64,000 nt of DNA from contig JACKFK010000009.1 of the NCBI GenBank assembly GCA_020632515.1, positions 4,476 to 68,475 on the forward strand, read 5' to 3'. Below the pieces are notes generated by a model. That model worked only from the letters and a program-made list of their open reading frames with translations, had not been told where the DNA came from and searched no databases. Each line of letters opens with the position of its first letter. Positions within the stretch are counted from its first letter, which is position 1. The position numbers were made by a program, and so were the translations under genes. Positions 1-39,979 of this stretch are shown here, one piece after another. Source of the stretch: Candidatus Omnitrophota bacterium (GTDB lineage Bacteria; Omnitrophota; Gorgyraeia; Zapsychrales; Zapsychraceae).

Positions 1-3000
1 TGAATCGTTTGCTGAATGTGGAATATCCGGATGGCGAAAAGATCTTCTATCAATATAACGATGCGGGACAGATTAAAGCAATCTCGAATGATGTGTTGAT
101 TCTGCCGCAATCGGCATTGGGAGTTGAAAAAAGTCACCAGGTCGCAAAGTCACAAAGTCGCCGAGAGATACCGTTGGCAGTGGCCAGTGATCAGATTTCA
201 GAAAGTCACAATGTCACAATGTCACAAGGTCACAAAGTCACAAGGTCACAAAGTCAACAAGTCGCCAAGTCACAAAGTCACAAAGTTACAAAGTTACCGT
301 TCATTATTGATACGAGCAACGAGCCCTTCGACTTCGCTCAGGACAAGCAACAAGCCCTTCGGCTTCGCTCAGGACAAGCAACCAGCAACCAGCAACAAGC
401 AACTAAACCTTTCTTGTCCCAACTGCTAGAACACCTTTCCAACTTTTTTGTTACTCCTGCTTACGCGCAGAGTAACGCGTATCTTTGGGAAGAGGCGGAA
501 AACGCGGACAGTTTATCATCTCAATTTCAGATCATCAATGAAGCCAGCGCTTCTAACGGCCAGCATACGTTCACCTCAAACACGATTCCTTCGAATTACG
601 CGGTGAATCCGGCTATGGTGGCGACCTACAGTTTTCAAGTGCCGAGCACGGGTAATTATGTTGTTTGGGGGCGTTGCTTGAATACGTTTGAAGACGATGA
701 TTCCTTTTATATTCAAATGGACAGCGGCACGATTCATACCTGGGATATCGCGCAGGTCGGCGGGTATCATTGGGATCAGGTCAGCAGTCGCGGCGGCGCA
801 GATCCGGTGGTGTTTAATTTAAGCGCGGGAACGCATACATTAAAAGTCTATGTGCGGGAAACCGGGACCAAACTGGATCGCATTCTTTTAACCAATGATT
901 TAACGTTTACACCGACGGGTTTAGGTGAAGATCCCGGGGCCGGGAGCAGCGACACGCAAGCGCCGAGTGTGCCGGCGGGATTGTCATTCACCAATAAAAC
1001 GCAGACATCGATGCAGTTGAATTGGAACGCGTCCACGGATAATGTGGGGGTGAGCGGATACCGCGTGGATGTGGCCACGAACAGTACGTTTAGCAGTATG
1101 GTTGCTGGCTTTAATAATTTGAACGTTGGCAATGTGACGGCGAAAAATATTACCGGATTGACGGCAGGAACAACGTATTACGCGCGGGTGCGCGCCTTTG
1201 ACGCGGCGGCAAATACGTCGGCCAGTTCTGTCACGGTTTCGGCGTCGACAAATTCCGCGCCGCCAAGCAACAATACTCCAGGAACAATTTGGATTGAGGC
1301 GGAAGCCGCCGATACTATTGTCGCGCCTTTTCAAATTGACGCGGATGTGAATGCTTCCAGCGGAGAATTTGCTTCCGTGCCGAATGGAAATCAGGATCAA
1401 AATCCTCCAGGGAATGTTATGTTAACGTACAACATTATGATTCCTGAAACCGGGGATTATGTGATTTGGGGGCGAACAATCAGTTTCGCGATTTTAGATG
1501 ATTCGTTTTTTGTGCAGGTTGACAACGGCACAGATTATTTATGGGATACCGAGCCTTCGGCCAATTGGAATTGGGATCAGGTGAATAATCGTAATGGCGC
1601 GGATCCGGTGATTTTTCATTTAACAGCCGGGGCGCATACATTAAAGATTAAAGAACGGGAAACGGGAACGTTGATCGACAAAATTCTCATCACCAATGAT
1701 CTCACTTATGTTCCAAGCGGATTAGGAGAAAGTGGAGGTTCATCCGCAGACACACAAGCGCCGAGTGTGCCGACGGGATTGTCATTTACGAATAAAACAG
1801 AAACATCCATGACGCTTAATTGGAACGCGTCCACGGATAATGTGGGAGTGAGCGGATACCGTGTGGATGTAGCCACGAATAGTACGTTTACCAGTATGGT
1901 TACCGGCTTTAATAATTTGAACGTCGGCAATGTGACGTCCAAAAATATTACCGGGTTGACGGCGGGGACAACGTATTACGCGCGGGTGCGCGCCTTTGAC
2001 GCGGCGGCAAATACGTCGGCCAGTTCCGCGACGGTTTCGGCGTCGACAAATTCTGCGCCGCAAAGCAACAATACTCCGGGAACAATTTGGATTGAGGCGG
2101 AGGCATTTGATACGATTAAGGCTCCATTTCAAACAGCTACCGATGCGAATGCATCCGGAGGTGTTTATGTGTATTCTCCAAATGGACAGTATGAGCAATG
2201 GAGTCCGGGGAGTGTGGAAACAACATATACTCTTGATATTGCGCAGACCGGCGATTATGTGATCTGGGGACGGGTTATCGGCGCGACAGGAAATGATGAT
2301 TCATTCTATGTTCAGATCGACGGTGGTAGTGATTATTTATGGAGTGTGGAAATTAACAGCACTTGGATTTGGGATCAGGTGAGCAGTTTTGGCGGGGCTG
2401 ATCCGGTGGTGTTTCATTTAACAGCCGGCATCCATACGCTTCATGTTAAACAGCGGGAGAACGGGGTGAAGATTGACAAGCTTGTGGTGACCAATGATCT
2501 AACGCTTGTGCCGAGCGGTTTGGGCGGATCTAACAGCAGTACGGCCGCCGCAACTTTGTTTATCAAAGACGTGAAGTATAACGCGTCAGGGCAGATTACA
2601 CGCGTGGAATACGGCAACGGGGTGGTGACCAATTACACGTTTAACACGCTGAATTTGCGGTTGGAGCGGATGCTAACGACCGACGCGCAAGGGGTGAAAT
2701 TGCAGGATCTCAATTACACTTATGATTCGGCCGGCAATATTTTAGGAATCACCGACGCGGTGCATACAGCCACGCAGACGTTTCAATATGATGCGCTCAA
2801 TCGGTTGAAAAAAGCGGTTGGAAATTATGGCACAAAAAACTATGCGTATGATCAAATCGGGAATATAATTCAGAAAGACGGTAAGACCTACACGTATGGC
2901 GCGGGCACTGCCGGGCCGCATGCGGTGACGTCACTTAGTGATGGATCCAGTTTTCAGTATGATGCCAACGGTAATATGATTGTCCGCAGTGAGAGCGGGG

Positions 3001-4520
3001 TCACAACGGAATACGGGTATGACGTCGAGAATCGTCTGGTTAGTGTCAAGGAGAATAGCGCGACCAAAGTTCTTTATCAATACGACGGCGATGGGGGAAG
3101 AACCCAAATGACCATTTCTGCCAGTAGCAAGACAACCACGTTTGTTGGTTCTCTTTATGAGAGTGATGGGTCACGCGCGACGAGTCACGTGTTTCTCGGG
3201 GATACTCGTGTCGCATCGATCACCAACGGGCAGATCGTTTATGTTCATGGAGATCATTTGGGCGGGGCGAATGTGATCACCGCTGCCGACGGGGTCATTA
3301 AGGAGTTGATTGAGTATAAACCGTTTGGTGCCAAGAGCGTGCATGAGAAGTATGGTTCAGGCGAGGCGATTGCCTGGCATTACTTTACGGGCCAGCGGTT
3401 GGATGATGAGGTCGGGCTCTACTACTACGGGGCGAGGTATTATGATCCGTCGCTCGGAAGATTCATTACGGCGGATGGTATAGTGCAAAATCCAGTAGGT
3501 GATCCGCAAACGTTTAATCGGTATTCCTATGTTGGGAATAATCCAATAATTCGGATAGACCCTAGTGGGCATTTTTGGTTTGTTGCGGCAATTGTTGCAG
3601 CTGTTAAAGGGGCAGTCATTGGAGCGACTATTGGAGCTACTACTGCTGCTATAACAGGAGGAGATATTGGAAGAGGGGCGTTATTTGGTGCAATTGGCGG
3701 CGCAGCATTTGCAGGGTTTGGAAGTTTAACGCAATCAGCTTTTCGAATTGCTACTGTTCCGGGAGGAATAGGCCCCATGACTTCTGGAGCAACCTTTGCT
3801 GCTGATCTTGCTGGCGGAATAATTGGCGGCGCTGCTGGTGGCGCTGCTAGCGCAGCCTATTTAGGGAGTGATCCCTTAAGTGGAGCAGGGATTGGAGCCC
3901 TTAGTGGGGGACTTTTTGGACAAGTCAGCAAAATGAGAGGGACAGGATGGCCAGGAGTTGGAAGAGTTGCTGCCGCAGGTATTGCAGGTGGGTTAGTTTC
4001 AGAGGTAGCAGGAGGTTCTTTCATAGATGGGTTTGCCTTTGCTGGGACTGTTGCGGGAGCAGATTTTATTTATAGAGCGATAGTGAGTACTCAACCAGGT
4101 GCAGAAGACATAGGATCAACTACGAAAACTGCAAGGCATCCAGGAAAATATAAGATGGGGTTTGATGAAAATGGAAATGAGAAATTATTGCGAGTTTTAA
4201 ATGTAGATAAACATTTAAGAAGTAATACAGGAATTCCTTCTTTTCTTGGAGAAACTGGAAATGCATTTTCACAACATTTTTGGGCTAGTGAGACAGGGGC
4301 TGTAATGAATTTTATGGCTAAATATATTCCAGGAATTAATGGGATGTCTTATGCTCATGATGTTTCAGGACATTTTCTAACAAGTACTTTTGGTAAATCG
4401 ATAAATGGTAAATTTTTTAATTTTCAAACAATGCCAATTTATTATGGAGTTAATAATATAGGAGCAGCGATTAATGATTTTCCAGCGTTAATTGGGATTT
4501 ATAATGTGTATGGAGAATAA
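1..4520 (+). CDS. RHS/YD-repeat polymorphic toxin, 5' end outside the window (frame 3 is open back to base 3, so the TTG at 9 is not a real start)
   Basis: YD repeats occur on both sides of the central array (NVEYPDGEKIFYQYNDAGQ; NYTYDSAGNILGITD; QYDALNRL; YDANGNM). An RHS-associated core (YFTGQRLDDEVGLYYYGARYYDPSLGRFITAD) ends in NPIIRIDPSGH, with DPSGH at 3558-3572. A 315-aa variable C-terminal region follows. Confidence 0.85.
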   Translation, partial: NRLLNVEYPDGEKIFYQYNDAGQIKAISNDVLILPQSALGVEKSHQVAKSQSRREIPLAVASDQISESHNVTMSQGHKVTRSQSQQVAKSQSHKVTKLPFIIDTSNEPFDFAQDKQQALRLRSGQATSNQQQATKPFLSQLLEHLSNFFVTPAYAQSNAYLWEEAENADSLSSQFQIINEASASNGQHTFTSNTIPSNYAVNPAMVATYSFQVPSTGNYVVWGRCLNTFEDDDSFYIQMDSGTIHTWDIAQVGGYHWDQVSSRGGADPVVFNLSAGTHTLKVYVRETGTKLDRILLTNDLTFTPTGLGEDPGAGSSDTQAPSVPAGLSFTNKTQTSMQLNWNASTDNVGVSGYRVDVATNSTFSSMVAGFNNLNVGNVTAKNITGLTAGTTYYARVRAFDAAANTSASSVTVSASTNSAPPSNNTPGTIWIEAEAADTIVAPFQIDADVNASSGEFASVPNGNQDQNPPGNVMLTYNIMIPETGDYVIWGRTISFAILDDSFFVQVDNGTDYLWDTEPSANWNWDQVNNRNGADPVIFHLTAGAHTLKIKERETGTLIDKILITNDLTYVPSGLGESGGSSADTQAPSVPTGLSFTNKTETSMTLNWNASTDNVGVSGYRVDVATNSTFTSMVTGFNNLNVGNVTSKNITGLTAGTTYYARVRAFDAAANTSASSATVSASTNSAPQSNNTPGTIWIEAEAFDTIKAPFQTATDANASGGVYVYSPNGQYEQWSPGSVETTYTLDIAQTGDYVIWGRVIGATGNDDSFYVQIDGGSDYLWSVEINSTWIWDQVSSFGGADPVVFHLTAGIHTLHVKQRENGVKIDKLVVTNDLTLVPSGLGGSNSSTAAATLFIKDVKYNASGQITRVEYGNGVVTNYTFNTLNLRLERMLTTDAQGVKLQDLNYTYDSAGNILGITDAVHTATQTFQYDALNRLKKAVGNYGTKNYAYDQIGNIIQKDGKTYTYGAGTAGPHAVTSLSDGSSFQYDANGNMIVRSESGVTTEYGYDVENRLVSVKENSATKVLYQYDGDGGRTQMTISASSKTTTFVGSLYESDGSRATSHVFLGDTRVASITNGQIVYVHGDHLGGANVITAADGVIKELIEYKPFGAKSVHEKYGSGEAIAWHYFTGQRLDDEVGLYYYGARYYDPSLGRFITADGIVQNPVGDPQTFNRYSYVGNNPIIRIDPSGHFWFVAAIVAAVKGAVIGATIGATTAAITGGDIGRGALFGAIGGAAFAGFGSLTQSAFRIATVPGGIGPMTSGATFAADLAGGIIGGAAGGAASAAYLGSDPLSGAGIGALSGGLFGQVSKMRGTGWPGVGRVAAAGIAGGLVSEVAGGSFIDGFAFAGTVAGADFIYRAIVSTQPGAEDIGSTTKTARHPGKYKMGFDENGNEKLLRVLNVDKHLRSNTGIPSFLGETGNAFSQHFWASETGAVMNFMAKYIPGINGMSYAHDVSGHFLTSTFGKSINGKFFNFQTMPIYYGVNNIGAAINDFPALIGIYNVYGE
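132..403 (+). repeat. Low-complexity repeat element read in frame inside the RHS ORF: GTCACAAR octamer arrays plus two GCTCAGGACAAGC-containing units and (AGCAACC)n
   Basis: Octamer arrays lie at 132-160 and 203-296. Near-identical ~30-nt units AGCCCTTCGRCTTCGCTCAGGACAAGCAAC lie at 322-351 and 352-382, and AGCAACC-type repeats at 383-403. The stretch translates as SHKVTKSQ-type and FDFAQDK/LRSGQA-type peptide. Confidence 0.9.
480..2530 (+). repeat. Intragenic tandem duplication with a 798-bp period: three beta-sandwich (CBM-like) modules interleaved with two FN3 domains
   Basis: Two anchors recur 798 bp apart: GACACRCAAGCGCCGAGTGTGCC at 951 and 1749, and GGAACAATTTGGATTGAGGCGGA at 1281 and 2079. 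The FN3 segments (about 951-1270 and 1749-2068) match at roughly nine in ten positions by eye. The CBM-like modules (WIEAEA..DDSF.VQ.D..W.WDQV..ADPV.F.L.AG.HTL) are more diverged. Confidence 0.9.
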
Positions 4521-4539
4521 ACGAAATAGACAAAGAGTA

Positions 4540-5031
4540 ATGAAAAAAATAATAGTTATTGTAATATTATTTTTTTCATGTGGATGTACAAGCGTATCTT
4601 TAGGTGGTATTAATTATAATAATGCTCCAAGAGGGTTTCACACTAGTAATACTTCAATTATTTATATTCTTCGAGAGAACGCAACTCCTACCGCATTTGG
4701 AGCTAAAATTTTAATTAACAATAAAAAAGTTTGTGCGCTGCCAAATAAGGGATTTACTTGGGTTGAAGTAATTCCTGGGGAAAAAATGATATTAGCAAAA
4801 TGGCCATCTATAACTGGACAAGAAGATAGTACTATTAGGATTAATGCTAAAGAAAATGAAACATATTACATATTATTAAATCATGATAGGACAATAGGGG
4901 GGTCTGTTTTTAGTCCGTACAATATGATTAATGCATTTGTAATAACAAACAAAAGTCTAGCTCAAAATAAAATGAAAGATATGAAATATTTTAAGAGTAA
5001 GAGAACGGACCAGGTTGTTTTATGTCAATAA
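4540..5031 (+). CDS. Small lipoprotein and candidate immunity protein for the RHS C-terminal toxin (alternative start at 4510 overlaps the toxin stop)
   Basis: It has a signal peptide with a lipobox-like sequence (MKKIIVIVILFFSCGC) and sits immediately downstream of the toxin tip. It is AT-rich like the toxin tip. Its last codons (KRTDQVV) are encoded by a copy of the GAGAACGGACCAGGT repeat. Confidence 0.5.
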   Translation: MKKIIVIVILFFSCGCTSVSLGGINYNNAPRGFHTSNTSIIYILRENATPTAFGAKILINNKKVCALPNKGFTWVEVIPGEKMILAKWPSITGQEDSTIRINAKENETYYILLNHDRTIGGSVFSPYNMINAFVITNKSLAQNKMKDMKYFKSKRTDQVVLCQ

Positions 5032-5230
5032 TTCGGTAACTTTTTCAAGTTTTTGAAAGGGCGTTTGGTATTTAATGCCACCATGAACGCGCCTGTGATT
5101 GTAATCGTATATATATTGTCCTAATTGCTCTTTGAATTCTTCAATATCTTTAAATGTGTGTGGTCTAATAAGCTCGTTTTGAACAATTTTAAAGAAAGCC
5201 TCTACTTTACCATTAGGCTGAGGATAATAA
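5020..5230 (-). pseudogene. C-terminal remnant of a DDE (rve-type, IS481/IS3-like) transposase
   Basis: Only about 70 aa remain. They carry the integrase-core E region (PQPNGKVEAFFKIVQNE) and the tail YNHRRVHGGIKYQTP. The N-terminal part is replaced by the 50-nt repeat at 5229-5280. Confidence 0.7.
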
Positions 5231-5280
5231 AGAGAACGGACCAGGTACATCTCGAGGGACACGTTGAGTGAAAGCAGTTC
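5229..5280 (+). repeat. REP-like ~50-nt repeat, copy 1 (AAGAGAACGGACCAGGTACATCTCGAGGGACACGTTGARTGAAAGCAGTT)
   Basis: It is nearly identical to 5506-5558, 277 bp downstream. The 5' 17-mer also occurs at 4998-5015 and 5559-5577, and inverted at 6245-6258. Confidence 0.85.
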
Positions 5281-5505
5281 TGTTCATAAGTAAATATTCA
5301 TAAAAATATAAAACTCGACCATCAACCGCATGTCTTTTTATTTTTTATGAATATTTAACTTGAAACGTTATAACCCAAATAAAAAGCATTTGGGTTGTTA
5401 TTTATCAACTCTTTATTGAGACTTAAAATAACAAATCGAACCAAACATCGGTTCGATTTATAACTTGCATGCTCTTTGGAGAACGGGACAGACCCCGATG
5501 GGGAC

Positions 5506-5577
5506 AAAGAGAACGGACCAGGTACATCTCGAGGGACACGTTGAATGAAAGCAGTTTTAAGAGAACGGACCAGGTCC
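5506..5577 (+). repeat. REP-like repeat, copy 2, followed directly by a short third copy (AAGAGAACGGACCAGGTCC)
   Basis: Direct sequence identity with 5229-5280. It lies about 55 nt upstream of the first Y1 transposase gene. Confidence 0.85.
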
Positions 5578-5632
5578 AAAAAAGTGACAGGTCAAGCTGA
5601 AATTAAGCGGAGAAAGGATAGGTTATTGATGA

Positions 5633-6229
5633 ATGGCGCGGGTATCAAGGAATGAATTACTTTATAAAGATTGTTATGCTCATGTGATATCACGATCGAT
5701 TCGCAAAATGAAGATTTTTAACGATGAAGAGGATTTCATCCAGTTTAAATATTTACTTTTGCAGGCTAAGAAAATAGGTCAATTTCGGGTATATCATTAT
5801 TGTGCAATGCAAACGCATTTCCATCTGGCTGTACAAATGGGGGATGTATCATTATTTGCGAATGCAATTCGGGATTTAAAAAGATCTTATGTTTACTGGT
5901 TTCACACAAAATATAAAATTAGTGGGCCGATATGGCGGGAACGATATCGAAGTTTGTTGATTGAGGATGAGAATTATTTATATACGTGTGGATTGTATAT
6001 TGAAAACAATCCGGTGAAAGCTGGGTTAGTGCAGCAATCGGATCAATGGGCGCACAGTTCAAGTCGGTATTATATTAGAGGAAGTAATGATGTCCTAGTC
6101 GATGAATATGAAAGGGACGTTTGTAAAATGAGTGATATTATGCTTGATGAAGAGGATTTTGAAAAGGGAAGTGTGATTGGATCCAGTTTTTTCCGATTTC
6201 AGTTTTATGATAGGCGTAAGAGAAGCTGA
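5633..6229 (+). CDS. IS200-like / REP-associated tyrosine (Y1, HUH) transposase, copy 1
   Basis: It has the HUH motif (QTHFHLAV) and the catalytic Tyr helix (YIENNPVKAGLV), plus WRERY. It is flanked by GAACGGACCAGGTCC at 5563-5577 and its inverted copy at 6245-6258. Confidence 0.8.
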   Translation: MARVSRNELLYKDCYAHVISRSIRKMKIFNDEEDFIQFKYLLLQAKKIGQFRVYHYCAMQTHFHLAVQMGDVSLFANAIRDLKRSYVYWFHTKYKISGPIWRERYRSLLIEDENYLYTCGLYIENNPVKAGLVQQSDQWAHSSSRYYIRGSNDVLVDEYERDVCKMSDIMLDEEDFEKGSVIGSSFFRFQFYDRRKRS

Positions 6230-6260
6230 GGGGTCCCTCTGAAAGGACCTGGTCCGTTTT
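6228..6260 (-). repeat. Inverted REP-like copy (GGACCTGGTCCGTT) preceded by a GAGGGGTCCCTC near-palindrome
   Basis: The reverse complement of 6245-6258 equals AACGGACCAGGTCC, as found at 5564-5577. Confidence 0.7.
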
Positions 6261-6324
6261 GTTGTTTTGTTTTGGAGGGAAAGGTTGAGTTGAACGAGAA
6301 CGAATGCAAGAAAGGAGCGTTGCG

Positions 6325-7086
6325 ATGCGACGAACGAAAGGGAGAGGTGTTTTTGAATTAATTTTAACAGGGGTGGTCTGCTGCGGAATGCTGATGGGTG
6401 CGGCAGGAAAAGCTGAGAGTTTTATACTCATTAATGAGTTCCTGGCTGATCCGGCTAGCGGACCCAGCGGCGATGCCAATGGCGACGGGGCTACCTCAAG
6501 CAGTCAGGATGAATTCATCGAACTGCTTAACTACAGCGACGAGGATGTAAATCTTTCCGGCTGGTCTTTAAGCGACAATCTACGGACCCGCCATGTCTTT
6601 TCCGATTCTACGATTATTAATTCGTATGGTTATTTTGTCATTTTCGGCGGAGGCGACTTCTCGGCAGCCAATTGGCAAAGCGCTTCCACAGGAACGCTGG
6701 GTTTAAATAATTCCGGCGATACGATCACGCTGTTTAACAGCGATTTATTGCAGATTGATCAGATCGTTTATGGCAGTGAAGGCGGGCAAAACCAATCGCT
6801 GACACGGTTTCCGGAAGGGGTACCAGGGAGCCCCTTTGTTTTGCACAGTGAATTAGCCCAGGCGCAAGGTCGGTTGTTTTCGGTGGGTGAAAGTATCGAC
6901 GGCCAGCCGATCGCGCCGGAGATTGTCCTGCCGGAAGAGCCGTTGCCTGAGATGTCGGAGTCAGGGGAAAATCCCGTGGTGCCGGAGCTGCCGGTGGCCG
7001 TGTATTTTCTTGTTGGGTTGGCTGGGCTTCATTTCCAACGGAGAACGGTTCTCGCTAAAGTCTTGGCGGGAAAAACGTTGGAGTAG
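6325..7086 (+). CDS. Secreted lamin-tail-domain (LTD) protein with a PEP-CTERM-like C-terminal anchor (alternative start 6304)
   Basis: It has a signal peptide and the LTD pattern (ILINEFLADP..DEFIELLNYSDEDVNLSGWSLSD..GLNNSGDTITLFN). The C-terminus reads VPELPVAVYFLVGLAGLHFQRR. The gene is visibly GC-richer than its surroundings. Confidence 0.7.
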   Translation: MRRTKGRGVFELILTGVVCCGMLMGAAGKAESFILINEFLADPASGPSGDANGDGATSSSQDEFIELLNYSDEDVNLSGWSLSDNLRTRHVFSDSTIINSYGYFVIFGGGDFSAANWQSASTGTLGLNNSGDTITLFNSDLLQIDQIVYGSEGGQNQSLTRFPEGVPGSPFVLHSELAQAQGRLFSVGESIDGQPIAPEIVLPEEPLPEMSESGENPVVPELPVAVYFLVGLAGLHFQRRTVLAKVLAGKTLE

Positions 7087-7096
7087 AGGTGTCCCT

Positions 7097-7603
7097 ATGA
7101 TTCGCCCGCGACGGTTTTATTACGCCAAGTCTATTTATCACGTCATTGCCCGCGGCAATAATCGGCAGAAAATTCTGAAATACCCCACAGACAAACAATC
7201 CTTTTTGAATAGTCTGACAAAATATAAAGGGCTCTTTTCTTTCCGGTTATACGCTTTTGTGATAATGGACAATCACATCCATTTGATGATTGAGGCTGAT
7301 GAGCATTTTAATATCTCCAAAGTCATGCAAAGGATTTTATTGTCTTATAGCGCGAAATACCGTAGAAAATATAAATATGTGGGGCATGTCTGGCAGGGGC
7401 GGTTTGTGAGTTTCAATGTTAGCGGAGATCATTACGTGGAGGAGTGTTTGCAGTATATACACCGCAATCCTGTAAAGGCGGGAATTGTTGACGTTGAGGC
7501 AGATTATCGATGGAGTAGTGCGCGGTTTTATGTTAAGCGTAAGGTTGTTTCAGATGGTTTGCTGTATGATTTGGATTTAGATGGTTCTGAGGGACACTTC
7601 TAA
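7097..7603 (+). CDS. IS200-like / REP-associated tyrosine (Y1, HUH) transposase, copy 2 (diverged from copy 1)
   Basis: It has HUH (MDNHIHLMIE), GRFVS, and the Tyr helix (YIHRNPVKAGIV). The ATG at 7097 follows the LTD stop. The tracked 6887 start would overlap the LTD gene and is unlikely. Confidence 0.8.
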   Translation: MIRPRRFYYAKSIYHVIARGNNRQKILKYPTDKQSFLNSLTKYKGLFSFRLYAFVIMDNHIHLMIEADEHFNISKVMQRILLSYSAKYRRKYKYVGHVWQGRFVSFNVSGDHYVEECLQYIHRNPVKAGIVDVEADYRWSSARFYVKRKVVSDGLLYDLDLDGSEGHF

Positions 7604-7740
7604 CTTAAATACTTGCAGAGTATATTGTTGGAGAGAACCGTTCTCAAAGATGGGGTGTCTATTTGCGGGAAGGGCTGTCCGGGAGTGTCTGGGTTTGTCA
7701 TCTTGAAAAGTATAGGGGGATGTTGCATACTTGTCGGAAT

Positions 7741-8122
7741 TAGTGGTAAGTGATAAGTCAGAAGCAAGTCACAAGGTCACAAGGTCACAAGGTCACAAAG
7801 TTATAAGGTCGCAAAGTCATAAGGTTGCAAAGTCACAAAGTGTTGAATCCGGCAAAAGAATTTTAGCTATCAGGCATCAATTATCAGCTATCAAAAAGTA
7901 GTATGGTCTTCTGTCGCCAGGATACAGTGACCATTGAAAAGTCACAAAGCCACAAAGTCATAAAGTCACAAAGTCGCAGATATTTTGTAATCTAGCAACT
8001 TTATGACACGGTGACATTTTGAAATCTGACGACTGACAGCTGACAGCTACGAATCAGATAACTGACACGGTGACTTTGTGACAAGGATGTCGGATATGTG
8101 TGCCTGTGACTTTAAAATACTG
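7741..8122 (+). repeat. Octamer-array foldback element, copy B (full length, intergenic)
   Basis: It starts TAGTGGTAAGTGATAAGTCAG, followed by (GTCACAAR)n at 7767-7840. The conserved core is GAATCCGGCAAAAGAAT..TAGCTATCAG..GTCGCCAGGATRCAGTGACCA, with a second array at 7940-7977. GCAACTTTATGACACGGTGAC and inverted octamers (GTGACTTTGTGAC) follow near 8068-8084. Confidence 0.85.
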
Positions 8123-8135
8123 AGAGGATAACGAT

Positions 8136-9005
8136 ATGATTGCTTTTACAAAAACAGCCAAGAAAACATTTAAACATATGCAAAAACAAGCGCGCATTCG
8201 CAAAGATATTAGCCAATTGAAAGAGCAGATTGGTTTGGTACCTAAACAAATGGCGCAGATTATTAAGGAAGTGTTAAATGATATTTTAATCGATGTGGAT
8301 CGGGTTACGATCGATAATATCGAACAGTTACGCCAAGATATGCTTCAATCTTCGGCCGCGGTTGTCAAACGCGATTTTGGCGCTGGCGCTCCCGGAGCAA
8401 AACTTTCCAATAAAGAAATGAAAAACGGCCGTCTTGTTGAACAATCCGTGGCTGAGATTTGCGCTATGACCAGCAAAGATCCGAAGTGGGCGTTGTTGCT
8501 TTTTAAAATGATCCGCACGTTTCATCCATTTATTTGTTTAGAACTTGGAACCAGCGTTGGGATTTCATGTTGTTATCAAGCCTCTGCTTTAAAATTAAAT
8601 GGTGAGGGTCGCATGATAACGATTGAAGGTTCAGATGAAGTTGCCAAAGTGGCGCAGGCGAATATTCATGATCTGGAATTAAATAATGTCGAGATTCGTA
8701 TTGGCCGGTTTGATCAGCAGCTGCCAGAAATTTTAGAAGAATTAGTGGAGGTTGACTTCGCGTTTATCGATGGTCATCATGATGAACACGCGACGCTGGA
8801 ATATTTTGAACGAATTCATCCTTATCTATCAACGCAGGCGATTATTGTATTTGATGATATTAATTGGTCGGAAGGAATGAAGAGGGCGTGGAAACAAATT
8901 GTTGATGATCCGCGGATAAAATATAGTTTTGATTTAAACGCCATGGGGGTGTGTTTCTTAGATCAAAACCGAAAGACGAAAAGCCATTTTAAGGTTGAAT
9001 TATAA
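8136..9005 (+). CDS. Class I SAM-dependent (O-)methyltransferase
   Basis: It has the SAM-binding fold motif LELGTSVGIS and the downstream pattern FAFIDGHHDEHATLEYF..IVFDDINW, typical of the O-methyltransferase family 3-like group. Confidence 0.6.
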   Translation: MIAFTKTAKKTFKHMQKQARIRKDISQLKEQIGLVPKQMAQIIKEVLNDILIDVDRVTIDNIEQLRQDMLQSSAAVVKRDFGAGAPGAKLSNKEMKNGRLVEQSVAEICAMTSKDPKWALLLFKMIRTFHPFICLELGTSVGISCCYQASALKLNGEGRMITIEGSDEVAKVAQANIHDLELNNVEIRIGRFDQQLPEILEELVEVDFAFIDGHHDEHATLEYFERIHPYLSTQAIIVFDDINWSEGMKRAWKQIVDDPRIKYSFDLNAMGVCFLDQNRKTKSHFKVEL

Positions 9006-10625: not shown

Positions 10626-11375
10626 ATGCACATTGGACGAACAAGATTTAAAAAAGATATCATTACAGAATTTATGCTGCCGCAGCGAAAAGATTCACGT
10701 AAGGTGATGATTTTCTGCTCAGGGGTTCCAGGTTCACCGCATAAGGATGAGGTTCTGGATTTTTGGGCGCGTAAAGGATATTGGACTTTTTTCCCCCGCT
10801 ACCGTGGGACATGGGAAAGTGGAGGATCATTTTTAGCGCATTCCCCGCATAAAGATTTGTTAGATGTTATTGATGGCTTGAGTTCCAAAGAAAAATTTCA
10901 TGATTTCTGGGGTGGTAAGAATCATCAAATCAAACCAAAGAAGATTGTCATTGTTGGATCGAGTTTTGGTGGACCAGCCGCTATTCTCGCGTCACGGGAC
11001 CCGCGGGTGGATAAAGTGGTTTGTATCTCGCCGGTGGTAGATTGGGTAGCGGAAAATAAAGCAGATCCGTTGGATAAGTTATACACCTTTCTTAAGGACG
11101 CCTATGGCGGTGCGTATCGGATCCAGAAGAAAGATTGGAATAAACTCGCGCAAGGTCGTTTTTATAATCCGGTTCAGCATCTGCAAGAGTTAGACGGTCG
11201 GAAGATTTTGATTTTACATGCTAAAGACGATGAAATCGTTAAAGCCAAACCTGTCATTAAATTTGCTCAACAAACTCAAAGTCAGCTTGTCCTGCTTAAT
11301 AAGGGCGGACATCTTTCCTCGTCAATGCTCACCCTAGATCGCTATTACCGTAAAGTGATTTCTTTTCTAAAATAA
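10626..11375 (+). CDS. Alpha/beta hydrolase (S9/dienelactone-hydrolase-like)
   Basis: It has the nucleophile elbow GSSFGG and a late D..H region (HAKDDEIV, GGH). Confidence 0.6.
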   Translation: MHIGRTRFKKDIITEFMLPQRKDSRKVMIFCSGVPGSPHKDEVLDFWARKGYWTFFPRYRGTWESGGSFLAHSPHKDLLDVIDGLSSKEKFHDFWGGKNHQIKPKKIVIVGSSFGGPAAILASRDPRVDKVVCISPVVDWVAENKADPLDKLYTFLKDAYGGAYRIQKKDWNKLAQGRFYNPVQHLQELDGRKILILHAKDDEIVKAKPVIKFAQQTQSQLVLLNKGGHLSSSMLTLDRYYRKVISFLK

Positions 11376-11445
11376 AGGAATTTAATCCTTTTTTACCAGA
11401 CATATTTCAGTATACTTAGAGTATAAATAATTTCATTCATTTATT

Positions 11446-12996
11446 ATGTCTATGAAACCAATACAACAAGGCAAAATTTTATTATTTTCTCCTAATATGC
11501 GGGGGATGAAGGGGGGCGTTAACCGGATTCAACCGCCTTTGGGGATTGGATATTTGGCCGCCTTATTAGAGAAAAATGGGTATAAGGTGTATATCCGTGA
11601 TACCGCCTTAGAAGGATATTCACATCAAGTGCCGATTGACCAGGATCCGCGCATGGTCCTTATTGGCGAAAGTGATGCGAGCATATCTGAATATATCAAG
11701 AAAGTCAAACCCGACATGGTGGGTATTTCAATTTTATTTTCCAACCTGGCTGCCCACGCGCATCAATTAGCCGCGCTCGTCAAAAAAATCAATCCACGTA
11801 TTCCTGTTATATTAGGAGGGAATCATGTCACGAATGCGGTGCGCGATTATGTGTTTGCGCTAACCCCGGGCAATGAAGCTTATCATTTGCCGCGGGAGCT
11901 TAAAGAAATTCAAGATCCGAATGTGGATTATCTTATGACGGGTGAGTCTGATTTTGATTTTCTTGACTTTGTTCAAACTTATTTCGCCAAAAAGAGTCTT
12001 GAGAATATTCGGGGTTTAGTTATGCAGAACGATCAGAAAGAGGTTGTTTTTAATCACGCGCATTTGAAAAAAGAACGCCGGGATTTGAAAGATCTTCCCC
12101 ATCCCGCGCGGCATTTAATGAATATGGAAGGTTATTTTAAGGTCGGATTATTTCATTCTTCACAAACGAAATCTAATAGAATTTTAAGTGTGATGGCGTC
12201 GCGGGGATGTCCGGAAAAATGTTCCTTTTGCACGACTCCGGCCATGTGGGGCTCCAAAGTGCGCTGGCGTGAACCTCAAGACATTTATAAAGAAATCAAA
12301 TCATGCATTAAGAAATACCGTGTTGGTGAGGTTCATTTTGAAGATGATACATTAACCGCGCACAAGAAATACTTGTTAGAACTGTGTGATTTGCTGGAAC
12401 CGTTAAAGATTCCATGGTGCACACCCAACGGAACGAAAATTAATTATCATTTAAAGACACAGCCGCAGTTGTTTCAACGCATGGTGGATGCTGGATGTTA
12501 TCAGATTACACTGGCGTGTGAAAGCGGGGTGCAAAGGGTGTTAGATCACATTATTCATAAGAATCTGAAGATTGAGCAAATTAAACCAGCGATTAAGAAT
12601 GCGAAAGAAGCGGGCCTGTTTGTTCATACCTTTTGGATTGTGGGATATCCCGGCGAAACGCGGCAGGAGATGGAAGAAACAATCCGTTTCGCTGCTGAGT
12701 CGGGCGCGGATAGTTTTTCGGTTTCCATTTTGACGCCGTTACCGGGTACGCCGATTTACCGTCAAGTCATGAAAGAAAATCTTTGGTGGGATTCAGATAA
12801 GGGGATTGAGCAGATGATTTACCGCAATTCTCTTATTAAAGTTGACGGCTTTCAGAATCCGGAAGCATTTGAACAATGGGTGCAGCAGCAGAACGCGTAT
12901 TTAAATAGCCTTCTTCAGAAAAACAATCCGCAAAGGGCACAAGAATTAATCAAGAGTCGTCGGGGAAAGGATTTATTAAAGATTAAGCAGACGTAG
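11446..12996 (+). CDS. B12-binding-domain radical SAM protein
   Basis: An N-terminal cobalamin-binding-like Rossmann region is followed by the CxxxCxxC cluster motif (SRGCPEKCSFCTTP). Confidence 0.7.
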   Translation: MSMKPIQQGKILLFSPNMRGMKGGVNRIQPPLGIGYLAALLEKNGYKVYIRDTALEGYSHQVPIDQDPRMVLIGESDASISEYIKKVKPDMVGISILFSNLAAHAHQLAALVKKINPRIPVILGGNHVTNAVRDYVFALTPGNEAYHLPRELKEIQDPNVDYLMTGESDFDFLDFVQTYFAKKSLENIRGLVMQNDQKEVVFNHAHLKKERRDLKDLPHPARHLMNMEGYFKVGLFHSSQTKSNRILSVMASRGCPEKCSFCTTPAMWGSKVRWREPQDIYKEIKSCIKKYRVGEVHFEDDTLTAHKKYLLELCDLLEPLKIPWCTPNGTKINYHLKTQPQLFQRMVDAGCYQITLACESGVQRVLDHIIHKNLKIEQIKPAIKNAKEAGLFVHTFWIVGYPGETRQEMEETIRFAAESGADSFSVSILTPLPGTPIYRQVMKENLWWDSDKGIEQMIYRNSLIKVDGFQNPEAFEQWVQQQNAYLNSLLQKNNPQRAQELIKSRRGKDLLKIKQT

Positions 12997-14904: not shown

Positions 14905-15212
14905 TGGTAAGCGCTAAGTGATTAGTGGTAAGTCAGAGAAAGTCACAAGGTCACAAGGTCACAAAGTCGCAAAGTGCCGAATCCGGTAAAAGAATCTTAG
15001 CTATTAAACATCAGTTTTTAGAAAAGTAATGGTCTCCTGTCGCCAGGATGCAGTGACCAGTGAAAAAGCCACAAAGCCACAAAGCCAACAAAGTCATAAA
15101 GTCACAAAGTCGCAGATATTTTGTAATCTAGCAACTTTATGACACGGTGACTTTGCAACATTGTGACCTTGTGACATTCTGAATACTGACAGCTACGCAC
15201 CGGATAACTGAA
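14902..15212 (+). repeat. Octamer-array foldback element, copy C (full length, fills the whole intergenic gap)
   Basis: The left arm 14932-14977 (GTCAGAGAAAGTCACAAGGTCACAAGGTCACAAAGTCGCAAAGTGCC) is approximately the reverse complement of the right arm 15141-15190. The internal core and second array (15068-15112) are shared with copy B. The element starts on the upstream stop codon and ends 7 nt before the next ATG. Confidence 0.9.
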
Positions 15213-16365: not shown

Positions 16366-16755
16366 GTGGAAGCTATTAAAGTTCGTTTAGATAAATGGCT
16401 TTGGGCGGTGCGGATTTGTAAAACACGGACGATCGCCACAGATTTATGCAAGCGTCAACGGGTCACTATCAACGGTCAGTATGCAAAACCTTCCCGCGAT
16501 ATTTCTCCTGGAGATCTTATTGTAATCAAAAAAGACGGCATCGAATGGCAGTATAAAGTCTTACAAGGCATTGATAAACGGGTTGGTGCCAAGATTGCGG
16601 CGCAAGCTTGTGAAGATGTGACACCAGCGGAGGCGTTAGCGAAGTTTAAGATGGTGAAATCTTCTTGGGTGCCGCGGCGGGATAAAGGCGCTGGCCGCCC
16701 AACCAAAAAAGATCGAAGAGAGATGGAGAGGTTTTTAGATAGTGATAAGTGTTAA
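16366..16755 (+). CDS. hslR: S4-domain RNA-binding heat-shock protein 15-like (GTG start)
   Basis: RLDKWLWAVRICKTRTIATDLCKRQRVTINGQYAKPSRDISPGDLI is an S4 domain. Confidence 0.7.
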   Translation: MEAIKVRLDKWLWAVRICKTRTIATDLCKRQRVTINGQYAKPSRDISPGDLIVIKKDGIEWQYKVLQGIDKRVGAKIAAQACEDVTPAEALAKFKMVKSSWVPRRDKGAGRPTKKDRREMERFLDSDKC

Positions 16756-16900
16756 GTGATAAGTGAAAAATAAGTTAAGAAATCACAAGGTCACAAAGTG
16801 CCGAATCCGGCAAGAAAACCTTAGCTATCAGACATCAGTTACAATTTGATCAACTAATTTTATGACTTTTTTTCAGTCAGTGGAGACTGGAGATTCGCGA
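16741..16900 (+). repeat. Octamer-array element, copy D (shortened)
   Basis: It reads GTGATAAGTGTTAAGTGATAAGTG..AATCACAAGGTCACAAAGTGCCGAATCCGGCAAGAAAACCTTAGCTATCAGACATCAG, then CAACTAATTTTATGAC. The middle section and the right arm are missing. Its start overlaps the hslR stop. Confidence 0.75.
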
Positions 16901-36625: not shown

Positions 36626-39600
36626 ATGTTTCACCGGACATCTTACAAATTAGTTGCACTAGTTGTAGTTTTAGTTGGGCTATTGATCAGCAACTCTACA
36701 GCCAATCCAACATTGGAATTCAATTCTAAATCGAATTATTCGTTTACCGCTCCATATGAAAAAGTTTCTTTAGATGTTTTAAACAGTATACATACCTATG
36801 CTGTCAGTTTTCATAAATTATCGTATATTTATCTAGAAGATATAGCGGTCAATTTATTAGATGCCAAATTAGCAGATTCTAATAAATTGCAGATTATCGC
36901 TCGTAGAAGTGCTCTGCCAGATGAAGTTTACCAATCGGATATTTCCAAAATAACAGCTGATTCTAGCTTGGTTGATTCAAAGGATAGAACTGTTTTGAAG
37001 AAAAACACGAAACGCGGATTAAATTTTCTTAAAACTAATTCTAAAGATGATCATCCTGAGTCCGCAGAAATGTTTGCGCAAGATAGGGAAGTAAAGATAC
37101 TATCGGATTCAGTGCAAGATGTAAATTCAGAAATAGAGATAAATAAACCGCAACAACTTGTCTTTGAATCTACCCAATCAAAAACAATAGCCGGATCATT
37201 GAAGGTTCAGCGAAAGAAAGTCGGAATTGGGCAGGTTAAAGATACTCAGAGCAGTATTTATGGAATTCAACCCAAAGGAAAACCTGTAAAAATTGGTACA
37301 ACTGTAGATGGAAAGAAATATTTAAAAGATAAATTTATTGTAAAATTTAAAACAACCGGTAAGCATGCGGTTAAATCATGCGCGCAATGCCTTCTTGCGC
37401 ATAAGGAAAAATTTTTAAATCATGTCATGGATCAGTCAGATTCTTTAGATCGGTTAAATCAGAAATATCAAATTAAAAAAGCGCGAAATTTATTCATGAA
37501 CCGGCATGGATTAAATAATGAAGAAGCGAAATATAAACAACAACGGATATTGGCTCAATCGATTGCTGTTCGACCATATCGCAGTAAACGAGCAGAACAA
37601 TTGAAGAAGCCTGCGGAAATTCCAGATCTTACAGCCTCCTATGTTATGGATTTACCAGAAGGTAGCGACATTGAAGAGGTTTGTCGTCAATATTCAAAGG
37701 ATGAGCATGTTGAATACGCGCATCCTGTTTATTTATATTCGACAAGATTAAATCCCAACGACACCTATGCTGATGCGGATCAAGATGGAAATTGGAGCAC
37801 CGGCGCTTACGGGCAATCGTTTGAGGATTTATGGGGAGTTCGACAAATCAAAGCGGAACAAGCTTTTGATATAGAACAAGGTAACGGAGTGATTGTGGCG
37901 GTTGTTGATACAGGTTTAGATTACAATCATCCGGATATAAGTGCAAATGTTTGGTCAAATTCAGGTGAGGTTGTTGATGGGGTTGATAACGACGGGAATG
38001 GTTATATTGATGATATTCGTGGGTTTGATTTTACAACATGCAATGCTTTTGATTTAATTTTTGGTTTTTGCACGTCACCGAAATTAGCTGATAACGATCC
38101 TATGGATGGTAACGGACATGGAACACACGTCTCTGGAACCATTGGCAGTGTTGTTAATAATGCTCAAGGAATTGTTGGTATTGCTCCGCAAGTTCAAATT
38201 ATGCCGTTGCGTTCATTAAATGATCAAGGGCTTGGGACTATTGATGAATTAGCCGAGGGGATTGTATATGCGGCTATCAATGGGGCTGACGTCATTAATA
38301 ATAGTTGGGGAGGGCCTTGTTTAGAAGCGCCATTTTCTGATCCAACGGCAGAGGCTGCGGTGGATACTGCGTTTGGTTTAGGTGTGGTGGTGGTTTTTGC
38401 TGCAGGTAACGAAACGGAAGATACAGAGTGTCATAGCCCGCAGAATATGAGTGAAACAATTACGGTGGCGGCAAGCACGACAGCGAATATGAAAGCGGAC
38501 TTTTCTAATTTTGGAGGTGAGTTAACGGTGAGCGCTCCTGGTGTGGATATTTTGTCGTTAAATGCCCAAGGAGGAAATAATACAATTGCGCTGACATCTC
38601 CTGAGTTGGTCGTTGATACAGATTATTTATTATTAGAAGGAACTTCAATGGCTTCCCCGCATGTAGCTGGTGTGGCCGCGTTAATTTTAGGGCAGCATCC
38701 CGAGTTAACAAATGTTCAGGTTAAATTAGCGTTGCAAGGAACAGCAGATGATATTGATGCTCCTGGATTTGACGAAAACACAGGATTTGGGTTAGTCAAT
38801 GCCTTGGAGGCTGTAACGCTTGATCGAGTGAAGCCAGTGATTGCAACCATTGGTGATAAAACTACGGATTCAGAAACCTTATTACAATTTACGGTAACTG
38901 CGTCAGATCCTAATAGTGATACTATAAATTTAAACGCGCGACTCAGTGATTCTAGCGCTTTAAGTACAATTGGAGCGGCATTTACCGATAATGGGGATGA
39001 TACGGGAACTTTTAGCTGGACACCATCATCGGCGCAACAAGGAATTGATTTTGCTATTGTGTTTACTGCGACAGATAGTCCAGATGGATTTTCTGATACA
39101 GAAACTATTACAATTACTGTTAACTCAACAACTCCTGTTTGTGGTAATGGTACAGTTGAAACTGGCGAAGAATGTGATGACGGCAACACTACGAGTGGAG
39201 ATGGTTGCTCAAGTATTTGTATTCAGGAGTTTACTTGTGGCGATGGGGTTTTGGAGGTTGGCGAACAATGTGATGATGGTAATACATCTGTTGGTGATGG
39301 ATGTAATGATAATTGTCAATTGGAGGTTTGTGGTAACGGGACAGTAGATTTTGGTGAAGAGTGTGATGATGGCAACACTTCTGCTGGGGATGGGTGTGAT
39401 GATTCATGTTTATCGGAAGTTTGCGGCAATGGCCGGGTAGATTTTGGAGAAGAGTGTGATGATAGTAATACAACCGCAGGAGATGGATGTTCAGCGTCAT
39501 GTACGATTGAAGTTTGCGGTAACGGGACAGTAGATTTTGGTGAAGAATGTGATGATGGTAATACAACATCCGGTGATGGCTGTACAAATCTTTGTCAGGA

Positions 39601-39979
39601 TGAATTTTGTGGAGATGGTACGGTCAATAATGGATCTGAGCAATGTGACGATGGTAATACATCTTCAGGAGATGGATGTTCATCAGCGTGTACCATCGAA
39701 GTTTGTGGTAATGGCACAGTTGATTTTGGCGAAGAATGTGATGATGGTAATACAGCCTCAGGTGATGGGTGTTCGTCCTCGTGTATAACTGAAGAATGTG
39801 GTAATCAAATTATCGATCCGGGTGAAGTTTGTGATGATGGTAATACTAATGAAGTGGATGGATGTACAAATAGTTGTCAAATCGGTCCGGTTTGCGGAAA
39901 TGGTCAATGTCAATCCGGCGAAACCTTCCTTAATTGCTTTCAAGATTGTGTGCCTTTTCGTTTTATTCCTCTAAATTAA
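36626..39979 (+). CDS. Secreted S8 subtilisin-like protease with an Ig-like domain and a C-terminal array of cysteine-rich repeats
   Basis: The catalytic residues are Asp (VAVVDTGLDYNHPD), His (GNGHGTHVSGTIG) and Ser (GTSMASPHVAGVAA). A signal peptide is present. Confidence 0.85.
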   Translation: MFHRTSYKLVALVVVLVGLLISNSTANPTLEFNSKSNYSFTAPYEKVSLDVLNSIHTYAVSFHKLSYIYLEDIAVNLLDAKLADSNKLQIIARRSALPDEVYQSDISKITADSSLVDSKDRTVLKKNTKRGLNFLKTNSKDDHPESAEMFAQDREVKILSDSVQDVNSEIEINKPQQLVFESTQSKTIAGSLKVQRKKVGIGQVKDTQSSIYGIQPKGKPVKIGTTVDGKKYLKDKFIVKFKTTGKHAVKSCAQCLLAHKEKFLNHVMDQSDSLDRLNQKYQIKKARNLFMNRHGLNNEEAKYKQQRILAQSIAVRPYRSKRAEQLKKPAEIPDLTASYVMDLPEGSDIEEVCRQYSKDEHVEYAHPVYLYSTRLNPNDTYADADQDGNWSTGAYGQSFEDLWGVRQIKAEQAFDIEQGNGVIVAVVDTGLDYNHPDISANVWSNSGEVVDGVDNDGNGYIDDIRGFDFTTCNAFDLIFGFCTSPKLADNDPMDGNGHGTHVSGTIGSVVNNAQGIVGIAPQVQIMPLRSLNDQGLGTIDELAEGIVYAAINGADVINNSWGGPCLEAPFSDPTAEAAVDTAFGLGVVVVFAAGNETEDTECHSPQNMSETITVAASTTANMKADFSNFGGELTVSAPGVDILSLNAQGGNNTIALTSPELVVDTDYLLLEGTSMASPHVAGVAALILGQHPELTNVQVKLALQGTADDIDAPGFDENTGFGLVNALEAVTLDRVKPVIATIGDKTTDSETLLQFTVTASDPNSDTINLNARLSDSSALSTIGAAFTDNGDDTGTFSWTPSSAQQGIDFAIVFTATDSPDGFSDTETITITVNSTTPVCGNGTVETGEECDDGNTTSGDGCSSICIQEFTCGDGVLEVGEQCDDGNTSVGDGCNDNCQLEVCGNGTVDFGEECDDGNTSAGDGCDDSCLSEVCGNGRVDFGEECDDSNTTAGDGCSASCTIEVCGNGTVDFGEECDDGNTTSGDGCTNLCQDEFCGDGTVNNGSEQCDDGNTSSGDGCSSACTIEVCGNGTVDFGEECDDGNTASGDGCSSSCITEECGNQIIDPGEVCDDGNTNEVDGCTNSCQIGPVCGNGQCQSGETFLNCFQDCVPFRFIPLN
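39139..39891 (+). repeat. Eight tandem ~31-aa cysteine-rich repeats (Myxococcus-type CGNG..GE.CDDGN...GDGC...C), plus one degenerate unit after them
   Basis: The units read CGNGTVDFGEECDDGNTSAGDGCDDSCLSEV and variants, with a period of 93-96 nt inside the protease CDS. Confidence 0.85.

Follow-up and report, generated by a model that had tools for sequence, protein, structure and literature searches.

REP-associated tyrosine transposases (RAYTs) occur widely. The Escherichia coli enzyme TnpA_REP (PDB entry 4ER8) is an HUH/Y1 protein, and its gene is bracketed by inverted short imperfect palindromes with a conserved 5' tail. These repetitive extragenic palindromic (REP) sequences occur in hundreds of copies per genome, and a conserved GTAG adjoins their hairpin. 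The TnpA proteins of the IS200/IS605 superfamily of insertion sequences (ISs), such as those of IS608 and ISDra2, have the same HUH/Y1 fold and act on elements with hairpin ends and a conserved box at a fixed distance; in IS608 the cleavage site is set apart from the hairpin. Rearrangement hotspot (RHS or Rhs) elements consist of a GC-rich core followed by an AT-rich tip and an immunity gene, and the Rhs loci of E. coli host resident ISs, for example H-rpt/ISAs1. To our knowledge, neither a RAYT nor an RHS system has been described before in the phylum Omnitrophota. Here we analyze a stretch of 64,000 nucleotides (hereafter the window; 38% GC) from a metagenome-assembled genome (MAG) of Candidatus Omnitrophota, in which two RAYT-class genes follow a predicted RHS toxin gene. 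In our reading, positions 4999-7645 are the variable 3' flank of an Omnitrophota RHS toxin locus with two separate RAYT-class units lodged in it, and we put the probability of this at roughly 0.62. The units themselves are of a known kind.

We refer to the two proteins as R1 (open reading frame (ORF) 5633-6229) and R2 (ORF 7097-7603), and to the ~36-nt repeat of R1 as REP(R1). L-numbers denote loci on contigs of other genomes and metagenomes that carry homologs or repeat copies. Homolog loci were sampled solely on how long their contig was, and the sample holds 12 independent genomes including the window. For the R1 motif, two related MAGs were scanned entire, and elsewhere ~20 kb around each homolog was covered.

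Both ORFs are intact and, as the original prediction made from the letters of the window had it, encode RAYT-type Y1 proteins that differ strongly from each other (30% identity). The HUH motif is H62-F-H64 in R1 and H60-I-H62 in R2, and the predicted catalytic tyrosines are Y122 in YIENNPVKAG and Y120 in YIHRNPVKAG, respectively. The HUH histidines and the tyrosine of YI..NPVKAG, which that prediction had also picked out, are invariant in alignments of 28 R1 homologs and 16 R2 homologs. REP_Tyr_transpos is the top NCBIfam model for both proteins, and R2 exceeds its cutoff of 80 with 85.8 bits. The IS200 model NF033573 gives R2 only 32 bits, under its cutoff of 55, and the NCBIfam search found no match between this model and R1. 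The only PDB sequence match for either protein is 4ER8 (E 3e-4 for R2). An AlphaFold (AF2) model of R1 (mean predicted local distance difference test score, pLDDT, 88) likewise has 4ER8 as its top Foldseek match (E 2.6e-9, TM 0.72 on the target), with the IS608, ISDra2 and IS200 transposases behind it at ~1e-5. Sequence comparison for both proteins, and the predicted fold for R1, therefore support a position nearer to TnpA_REP than to IS200/IS608, in keeping with the earlier view that they are not ordinary IS200/IS605 enzymes. They differ from the E. coli protein in that identity is ~19-25% and that R1 has an extra C-terminal part of ~50 residues. Identical (100%) database entries for R1 and R2 carry the annotation 'transposase'. 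Relatives at 45-72% identity number more than 100 for either protein, most of them each found on a single contig, and the few with a source label are mostly from Omnitrophota.

The R1 gene, like that of TnpA_REP, lies between inverted copies of its own repeat. The 17-mer AAGAGAACGGACCAGGT occurs exactly at 4999, 5230, 5507 and 5559 on the + strand, which moves the previously reported copies by one base at most, and an inverted copy with two mismatches lies at 6247-6263, where the core AACGGACCAGGT is exact. These five matches compare with 0.10 expected, and none of 100 shuffles reached five. The 17-mer makes up the 5' part of an imperfect palindrome of ~36 nt. Among the 60 exact matches in public genomes and metagenomes (16 genome, 44 metagenome), ~12 have in common the longer motif AAGAGAAC-GGACCAGGTC-N8-GGGACAGGTC, with which all five window copies agree. 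As single-stranded DNA, the repeat consensus is predicted to fold into an imperfect hairpin in which GACC.AG.GTC pairs with GAC.A.GGTC (-4.5 kcal/mol, z = -2.2), and 90% of the cells pair across 21 copies. Its conserved 5' tail recalls the GTAG that adjoins the hairpin of E. coli REPs. Copies 4 and 5 (Table 1) delimit an R1 unit of 705 bp (5559-6263), with three further direct copies and a degenerate relative stacked upstream of it. Copy 5 can pair with copies 2 and 3 over 31-nt arms that are 77% complementary, and with copy 4 over 19 nt (89%); with a T-run behind it, it is also scored as a terminator-like hairpin. The near-identical ~50-mers noticed earlier are 51-mers (5229-5279 and 5506-5556), 277 nt apart and 98% identical with a single mismatch.

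The same layout is found at homologous loci. In L013, L063 and L066, a repeat precedes the ATG of the R1 homolog by 30-150 nt and an inverted repeat follows the stop codon by 0-17 nt, and in L042 the left-end repeat agrees with these in position and orientation. A sister subclade (L067, L068 and L080) is flanked instead by an inverted 'type-2' repeat, GGGACAGTCCCCAAAAAGGGACAG, the 24-nt core of which is identical in all three while the proteins are only 50-57% identical; in L067 the ends form perfect 29-nt inverted repeats. L066 holds repeats of both types. The repeat type tracks the protein subclade, and REPIN-associated RAYTs of Pseudomonas and enterobacteria likewise have repeats that change with the protein clade. 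A further likeness is an apparently single-copy gene at a stable site, as seen for one R1 homolog: P0037 occupies the same chromosomal position, upstream of recG, in 16 contigs from many samples, and these samples vary in having one or two upstream repeat copies while the site of the gene is constant.

Type-1 copies also occur alone, with ~10 in unrelated metagenome contigs. Of the solitary copies, 8/11 lie 0-56 nt after, or overlap, the stop codon of a co-oriented ORF, and ordinary genes are among those followed: an ATP-synthase-c-like ORF in L026 and, in L057, a site adjoining a tRNA. The cognate repeats appear to be low-copy in the sequence covered, with rare solitary copies at gene 3' ends, as reported for the RAYT groups other than the REPIN-rich ones. 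RAYT groups 1, 4 and 5 have low counts of flanking 16-mers, at 12-31 copies per replicon (Bertels et al. 2017, PMC5581495), with which the apparently low repeat abundance in the present case would fit. The R1 repeat is REP-like in form and placement, but scarce in the sequence covered. As regards abundance, in the classical sense, the REP interpretation first proposed for it is weak.

Two further observations concern the surroundings of this repeat. In L013 (~7150-7220), L054 (~940-990) and L068 (9810-9840), degenerate tandem runs of its 5' tail (GAGAAC, GAGAACG, GGAGAAC) lie outside the left repeat, and GGAAGG-type runs accumulate outside the right repeat; such runs at the repeat edge could reflect slippage or repeated partial copying. 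In L004 (292-308), L040 and L059, the 17-mer is embedded in a different conserved sequence of ~50 nt (CACCAAGAGAACGGACCAGGTG.A...CA.AAGGG...TTCCTTTCCCGG) on otherwise unrelated contigs, one of which is a deltaproteobacterial MAG; this conserved element is probably a coincidence.

R2 makes no use of the 17-mer. The 9-mer GAGGGACAC, earlier reported to bracket its gene, is indeed found exactly at 5254, 5531 and 7589, and its inverted form TAGGGACAC lies at 7089-7097. With 6 occurrences in the window where chance would give 4.3, it is not enriched; we rejected it as an over-represented word on this count and accepted it, on spacing and conservation, as the inner box of the R2 ends. The copies at 5254 and 5531 are there because copies 2 and 3 of REP(R1) have GGGACACGTT as their second half. 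The outer part of each end is a 13-nt palindrome, GAGAAC(G/C)GTTCTC, and the box GTGTCCCT lies exactly 35 nt inside it on both sides of the gene; the R2 unit so defined spans 7041-7645 (605 bp). Each of the five R2-family loci examined (the window, L076, L077, L078 and L081) has such bipartite inverted ends, with the layout palindrome, 33-35 non-conserved bases, and box CAGAAGTGTCCC(C/T). The palindrome shows compensatory changes between these loci, three of its six pairs changing on both sides, and its covariation of 0.378 (0.19 in shuffles) was reached in 0/500 shuffles. The right box reads EGHF* in the window and YGDTS in L076, L077 and L081; since the reading frame differs, the box is conserved as DNA. 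A conserved box at a set distance from a hairpin recalls the cleavage site of IS608. Compared with E. coli REPs and bacterial interspersed mosaic elements (BIMEs), the R2 ends differ in being bipartite with a 35-nt spacer, and the repeats at this locus are few.

If R1 and R2 work like E. coli TnpA_REP and IS608 TnpA, either enzyme would bind its own repeat folded as a hairpin in single-stranded DNA; the catalytic tyrosine would cut beside the hairpin, and the cut ends would then be rejoined. What we observe is the class of the proteins, the structure of the ends and how it is conserved, the junctions, and the context in the genome; hairpin binding, cleavage and any mobility of the two units are what we infer from the relatives. 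Cutting and rejoining of this kind would copy or shuffle repeats and leave sharp junctions between repeat and unrelated DNA, and such junctions are present here. The last 11 codons of the immunity candidate (...KRTDQVVLCQ*) come from copy 1 of REP(R1) and an IS remnant, so that a repeat copy does form its C-terminus, as had been noticed; in L015, an unrelated immunity-like ORF behind an RHS gene ends in ...KRTDQVL* on a repeat copy. The IS remnant is bounded by repeat copies on both sides, and the truncation of its IS481-type transposase at a repeat also bears out the first description: ORF 5020-5262 on the - strand matches Pfam rve_3 (1.5e-12, residues 12-68) and NCBIfam IS481 profile positions 223-283 of 284, and loses homology at residue ~11, nt ~5230, where a repeat copy starts. 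The lamin-tail-domain (LTD) gene between R1 and R2 has a rewritten 3' end. Its homolog in L078 ends ...KRRF* right after a PEP-CTERM-like segment, whereas the window protein has 13 extra C-terminal residues (TVLAKVLAGKTLE) encoded by the R2 left end; R2 was therefore inserted into the 3' end of the LTD gene, after the latter was in place. The immunity tail, the bounded remnant, the 51-mer duplication and the copy variation around P0037 are signs of repeat-linked REARRANGEMENT that come directly from the sequence.

The genes ahead of R1 have the make-up of an RHS polymorphic toxin locus as judged from their sequence: YD/RHS repeats, a core end, a variable tip and a small downstream predicted immunity gene. 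The RHS ORF, which probably continues upstream of the window, comprises Fn3, carbohydrate-binding-module-like and RHS-shell modules, and its shell is 50-57% identical to the YD-shell proteins of L063, L066 and L078. The core ends in ...IDPSGHFW, with the PxxxxDPxG core end present in the translation (...NNPIIRIDPSGHFW), and is followed by a C-terminal toxin tip (3489-4520) that had no Pfam match. From 0.58 in the shell, third-codon-position GC (GC3) goes down to 0.21 in the tip and 0.19 in the immunity candidate; this sharp drop at the core/tip boundary (3489-5031) is the classical signature of an acquired toxin-immunity cassette, and the AT-rich cassette ends at copy 1 of REP(R1). A GC-rich core with an AT-rich tip and immunity gene, orphan core fragments downstream (in L063 and L077) and transposase genes in the variable 3' region are features shared with Rhs elements described elsewhere; the difference is that the residents here are RAYT-class HUH genes and not DDE ISs, and that two RAYT families recur in this position, on the same strand. 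The features are collected in Table 1. A search of window positions 1-9000 against Rfam gave no match.

Table 1. Features of the predicted RHS locus and of its 3' flank, in window coordinates
Feature	Position	Strand	Details
RHS/YD-repeat polymorphic toxin ORF (predicted)	9-4520	+	Pfam RHS_repeat 5e-14, fn3 2e-22
Immunity candidate, DUF2846 lipoprotein-like ORF	4492-5031	+	Pfam DUF2846 6.7e-9; overlaps RHS stop
REP(R1) copy 1	4999-5015	+	exact 17-mer; second motif half missing; IS remnant cuts after ...CAGGT
IS3/IS481-type element remnant	5016-5229	-	last ~70 aa of rve-domain transposase and element end
REP(R1) copy 2	5230-5265	+	AAGAGAACGGACCAGGT-ACATCTCGA-GGGACACGTT; within 51-mer 5229-5279
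AT-rich spacer between 51-mers	5280-5477	.	terminator-like hairpins on both strands: 5370-5398 (+), 5461-5431 (-)
Degenerate type-2 R1 repeat GGAGAACGGGACAGACCCCGATGGGGACA	5478-5506	+	likeness to GGGACAGTCCCCAAAAAGGGACAG judged by eye
REP(R1) copy 3	5507-5542	+	within 51-mer 5506-5556
REP(R1) copy 4, left end of R1 unit	5559-5594	+	AAGAGAACGGACCAGGTCC-AAAAAAGT-GACAGGTCA; 38 nt ahead of ATG
R1, RAYT-class HUH/Y1 protein	5633-6229	+	198 aa; Pfam Y1_Tnp 4e-10
REP(R1) copy 5, right end of R1 unit	6233-6263	- (inverted)	begins 4 nt past stop
LTD surface protein, VPEL...RR PEP-CTERM-like tail	6304-7086	+	Pfam LTD PF00932 1.6e-19
R2 left bipartite end	7041-7096	+	palindrome GAGAACGGTTCTC 7041-7053, 35-nt spacer, box GTGTCCCT 7089-7096 abutting ATG
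R2, RAYT-class HUH/Y1 protein	7097-7603	+	168 aa; Pfam Y1_Tnp 3e-18
R2 right bipartite end	7590-7645	- (inverted)	box AGGGACAC in last codons, 35-nt spacer, palindrome GAGAACCGTTCTC 7633-7645

Several results weigh against our reading of the two units as RAYT-class. R1 scores 55.1 bits with REP_Tyr_transpos, which is its sole NCBIfam match yet falls under the cutoff of 80, and would be a borderline RAYT member if judged by that curated cutoff alone. In the window, the R1 repeat is confined to its locus, the 17-mer having no further copy there; no copy was seen beyond the gene flanks in the ~20 kb around any homolog, and the motif was found at one locus each in the two related MAGs. Its hairpin is weak, and no column varies on both sides among the 21 copies, the sequence being too conserved for covariation to be visible. 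As to the question whether the repeats form pairs as REPs and BIMEs do, the consensus folds, but no REPIN-type inverted doublets were seen: a copy stands either alone or in a direct tandem (window 5507/5559, L026, L071 and L078), and the only inverted pairs are those that span the gene. This sets them apart from BIMEs and from REPIN-RAYT systems, as do the duplicated gene copies of L078. For R2, no solitary copy of the ends was found, and none lies outside the locus in the window or beyond the gene flanks in the ~20 kb around each homolog. The R2 unit occurs in unrelated contexts in different genomes (L076, L081) and here within the 3' end of a gene, so it must itself have moved at some time, and the two identical R2 copies in L078 look more like an IS.

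The explanation that draws most on these points is that both units are autonomous low-copy ISs from a RAYT-like branch of the IS200/IS605 superfamily, which would accumulate in RHS loci because these tolerate insertions. The units are compact with well-defined inverted ends, perfect over 29 nt in L067, and, as in IS families, the ends stay conserved where the proteins have diverged; the landing of R2 in the last codons of the LTD gene, the near confinement of the repeats to gene flanks and the adjoining IS remnant fit as well. What speaks against it is, to begin with, copy number: each gene is single in the 64 kb of the window and occurs once per ~20-kb locus elsewhere, without a sign of the multiple copies of the IS200/IS605 kind, and P0037 keeps one site across many samples. 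The proteins are closer to TnpA_REP in sequence and fold; the end hairpins are inverted, whereas IS200/IS605 ends are direct; and solitary R1 repeats exist with no gene nearby. At the R1 and R2 units we found no target-site duplication and no tnpB, nor any neighbouring ORF of tnpB size. A plasmid search returned only distant relatives (<=46% identity), and the IMG/VR viral contigs held no R1 relatives and three distant R2 relatives, none with an RHS gene nearby. On balance we regard the IS explanation as unlikely, though it is the main rival.

Two of the loci just mentioned have features of their own. In L078 (10001-12470), the identical R2-family genes are 1756 nt apart with two small ORFs between them, and five tandem copies of the palindrome unit precede the second gene and two follow it; a run of N after 12296 means that the duplication may be a scaffolding artefact. 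In L084 (9801-10601), an IMG/VR contig, classical REP-like hairpins (ATACGATGACTCCAAGTCATCGTAT) lie on both sides of an R2 relative of 28% identity, several of them upstream and an inverted one downstream.

RAYT-class genes recur surprisingly often beside the same kind of toxin gene in related bacteria, which the original prediction had missed. A YD-shell/RHS gene lies within 3 kb of, and on the same strand as, a RAYT-class gene in 8/12 independent genomes, and two RAYT families are involved. An R1 homolog stands directly behind a toxin gene and an immunity-like ORF in L042, L063, L066 and L067, and directly ahead of an Fn3+YD giant in L080; an R2 homolog follows two orphan cassettes in L077, and the two R2 copies of L078 come after an RHS gene and small ORFs. 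A Pfam scan assigned the small ORFs between RHS and RAYT genes to no known immunity family. In a full-text literature search, no paper was seen to connect RAYTs to Rhs or polymorphic toxins.

This recurrence raises the possibility that the RAYT genes are working parts of the toxin locus, in which cutting and joining at the repeats would help to capture, displace and rearrange tips and immunity genes. In L063, the R1 unit exactly fills the place between the main toxin-immunity pair on one side and, on the other, an orphan RHS core fragment (10637-12639) that starts 3 nt from the repeat, and the toxin domain of this orphan is 58% identical to the toxin tip of the window. A repeat forming the C-terminus of two unrelated immunity-like ORFs (window and L015), the ending of the AT-rich cassette at a repeat, and the position of the L068 and L080 R1 homologs beside a second family of large proteins, in which the N-termini are conserved and the C-termini unrelated, point the same way. 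Yet repeats are absent at the internal orphan-cassette boundaries of L077 and after the L063 orphan, and on this account we rejected an attC-like role, in which each boundary between cassettes would carry a repeat. Solitary repeats follow ordinary genes too, the RAYT genes of L013, L076 and L081 have housekeeping surroundings, and that of L068 is without an RHS gene nearby. In L066, L067 and L078, serS lies ~6 kb downstream, and with serS in this shared position part of the association of RAYT and RHS genes is therefore inherited synteny. The sample, moreover, is small. We consider a working role in the toxin locus rather improbable, and give equally slim odds to the wider proposition of a functional tie, in Omnitrophota, between polymorphic-toxin loci and RAYT enzymes with their hairpin repeats, in which the enzymes would cut and join single-stranded DNA at a repeat on the 3' edge of the modules and so help tips to be captured or displaced.

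Some neighbouring genes deserve mention in their own right. The orphan of L063 is followed by an ORF of 220 residues without detectable similarity to the DUF2846 immunity candidate of the window. The large proteins adjoining the R1 homologs of L068 (1446-9801) and L080 (5251-9951), of 1055, 1171 and 1566 residues, have no significant Pfam domain; they have an N-terminus of ~400 residues in common (40-47% identity) and unrelated C-termini, a polymorphic-toxin-like layout. The RHS gene of L066 has Y1-type genes on both sides, since the ORF immediately upstream of it (3-449), truncated by the end of the contig, is a third, divergent Y1-like one with 28-32% identity to R1 and R2 and no Pfam match at E<=1.

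The original prediction had also proposed that the two RAYT genes enclose the GC-rich LTD gene as the cargo of one mobile unit. The LTD domain itself is clear, and the PEP-CTERM-like tail is seen by eye and in the alignment to the homolog, with no Pfam detection. The gene does lie between R1 and R2 and is GC-richer than its immediate flanks, and the arrangement of LTD and R2 recurs in a second sample, L001. However, the LTD and R2 proteins of L001 are identical to those of the window, which is consistent with the same population, and L001 is therefore not an independent insertion. The GC3 of the LTD gene (0.55) equals that of the RHS shell, and high GC is therefore no mark of foreign origin at this locus. 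In L078, a homolog of the LTD gene (43-49% identical) precedes an RHS gene by 21 nt without a flanking RAYT pair, which supports the LTD gene as a resident partner of the RHS locus and not cargo. With ends that are unrelated, R1 and R2 could not delimit a single element between them; both units are already complete, each having an inverted pair of its own, and R2 arrived later than the LTD gene whose 3' end it overwrites. We have rejected a composite transposon carrying LTD and see next to no chance for it.

The RHS ORF contains repeats of its own. At 130-400, an 8-mer array and a 31-nt tandem repeat (AGCAACAAGCCCTTCGACTTCGCTCAGGACA, 2.3 copies) leave the frame intact and translate as ...SHKVTKSQ...PFDFAQDKQ...; either this is a repeat-encoded insert in the toxin, or the true start is downstream. 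At 761-2524, there are three tandem modules of ~800 nt, each with a GH115_C-like carbohydrate-binding domain and Fn3. Two of them are 91% identical over 300 nt, and the modules sit between RHS-shell segments that are contiguous in the L063 homolog.

Elsewhere in the window, (GTCACAAR)n elements form a second dispersed family, intergenic and 300-370 bp long, with arrays of 8-bp period and an inverted tail (…CTTTATGACACGGTGAC…). They are found at 130-300, 7740-8110, 14913-15183 and 16745-16840, that is, at four sites in the first 17 kb, and also in L001 from ~1470, and there are none in 80 loci from other organisms. One copy begins 95 nt past the R2 right end. We rejected these arrays as the dispersed partner of R2: they are without the palindrome and box, and they are absent from R2 homolog loci. 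Further along, at 39137-39879, at least seven tandem 93-nt repeats encode a Cys-rich unit (CGNG..E.GEECDDGN...GDGC...C).

Two RAYT families with conserved end structures are thus found repeatedly at the 3' edge of RHS toxin-immunity modules. If the link is not functional, the analysis would still have provided the predicted cognate DNA sites, ready for biochemical work, of two RAYT families that are uncharacterised, and a warning that repeats can write the tails of short ORFs in these genomes. If it is functional, it would connect two questions in a testable manner, namely how RAYTs benefit the cell and how RHS tips are acquired and shuffled: RAYTs would gain a role at the level of the host, and RHS loci a dedicated rearrangement enzyme.

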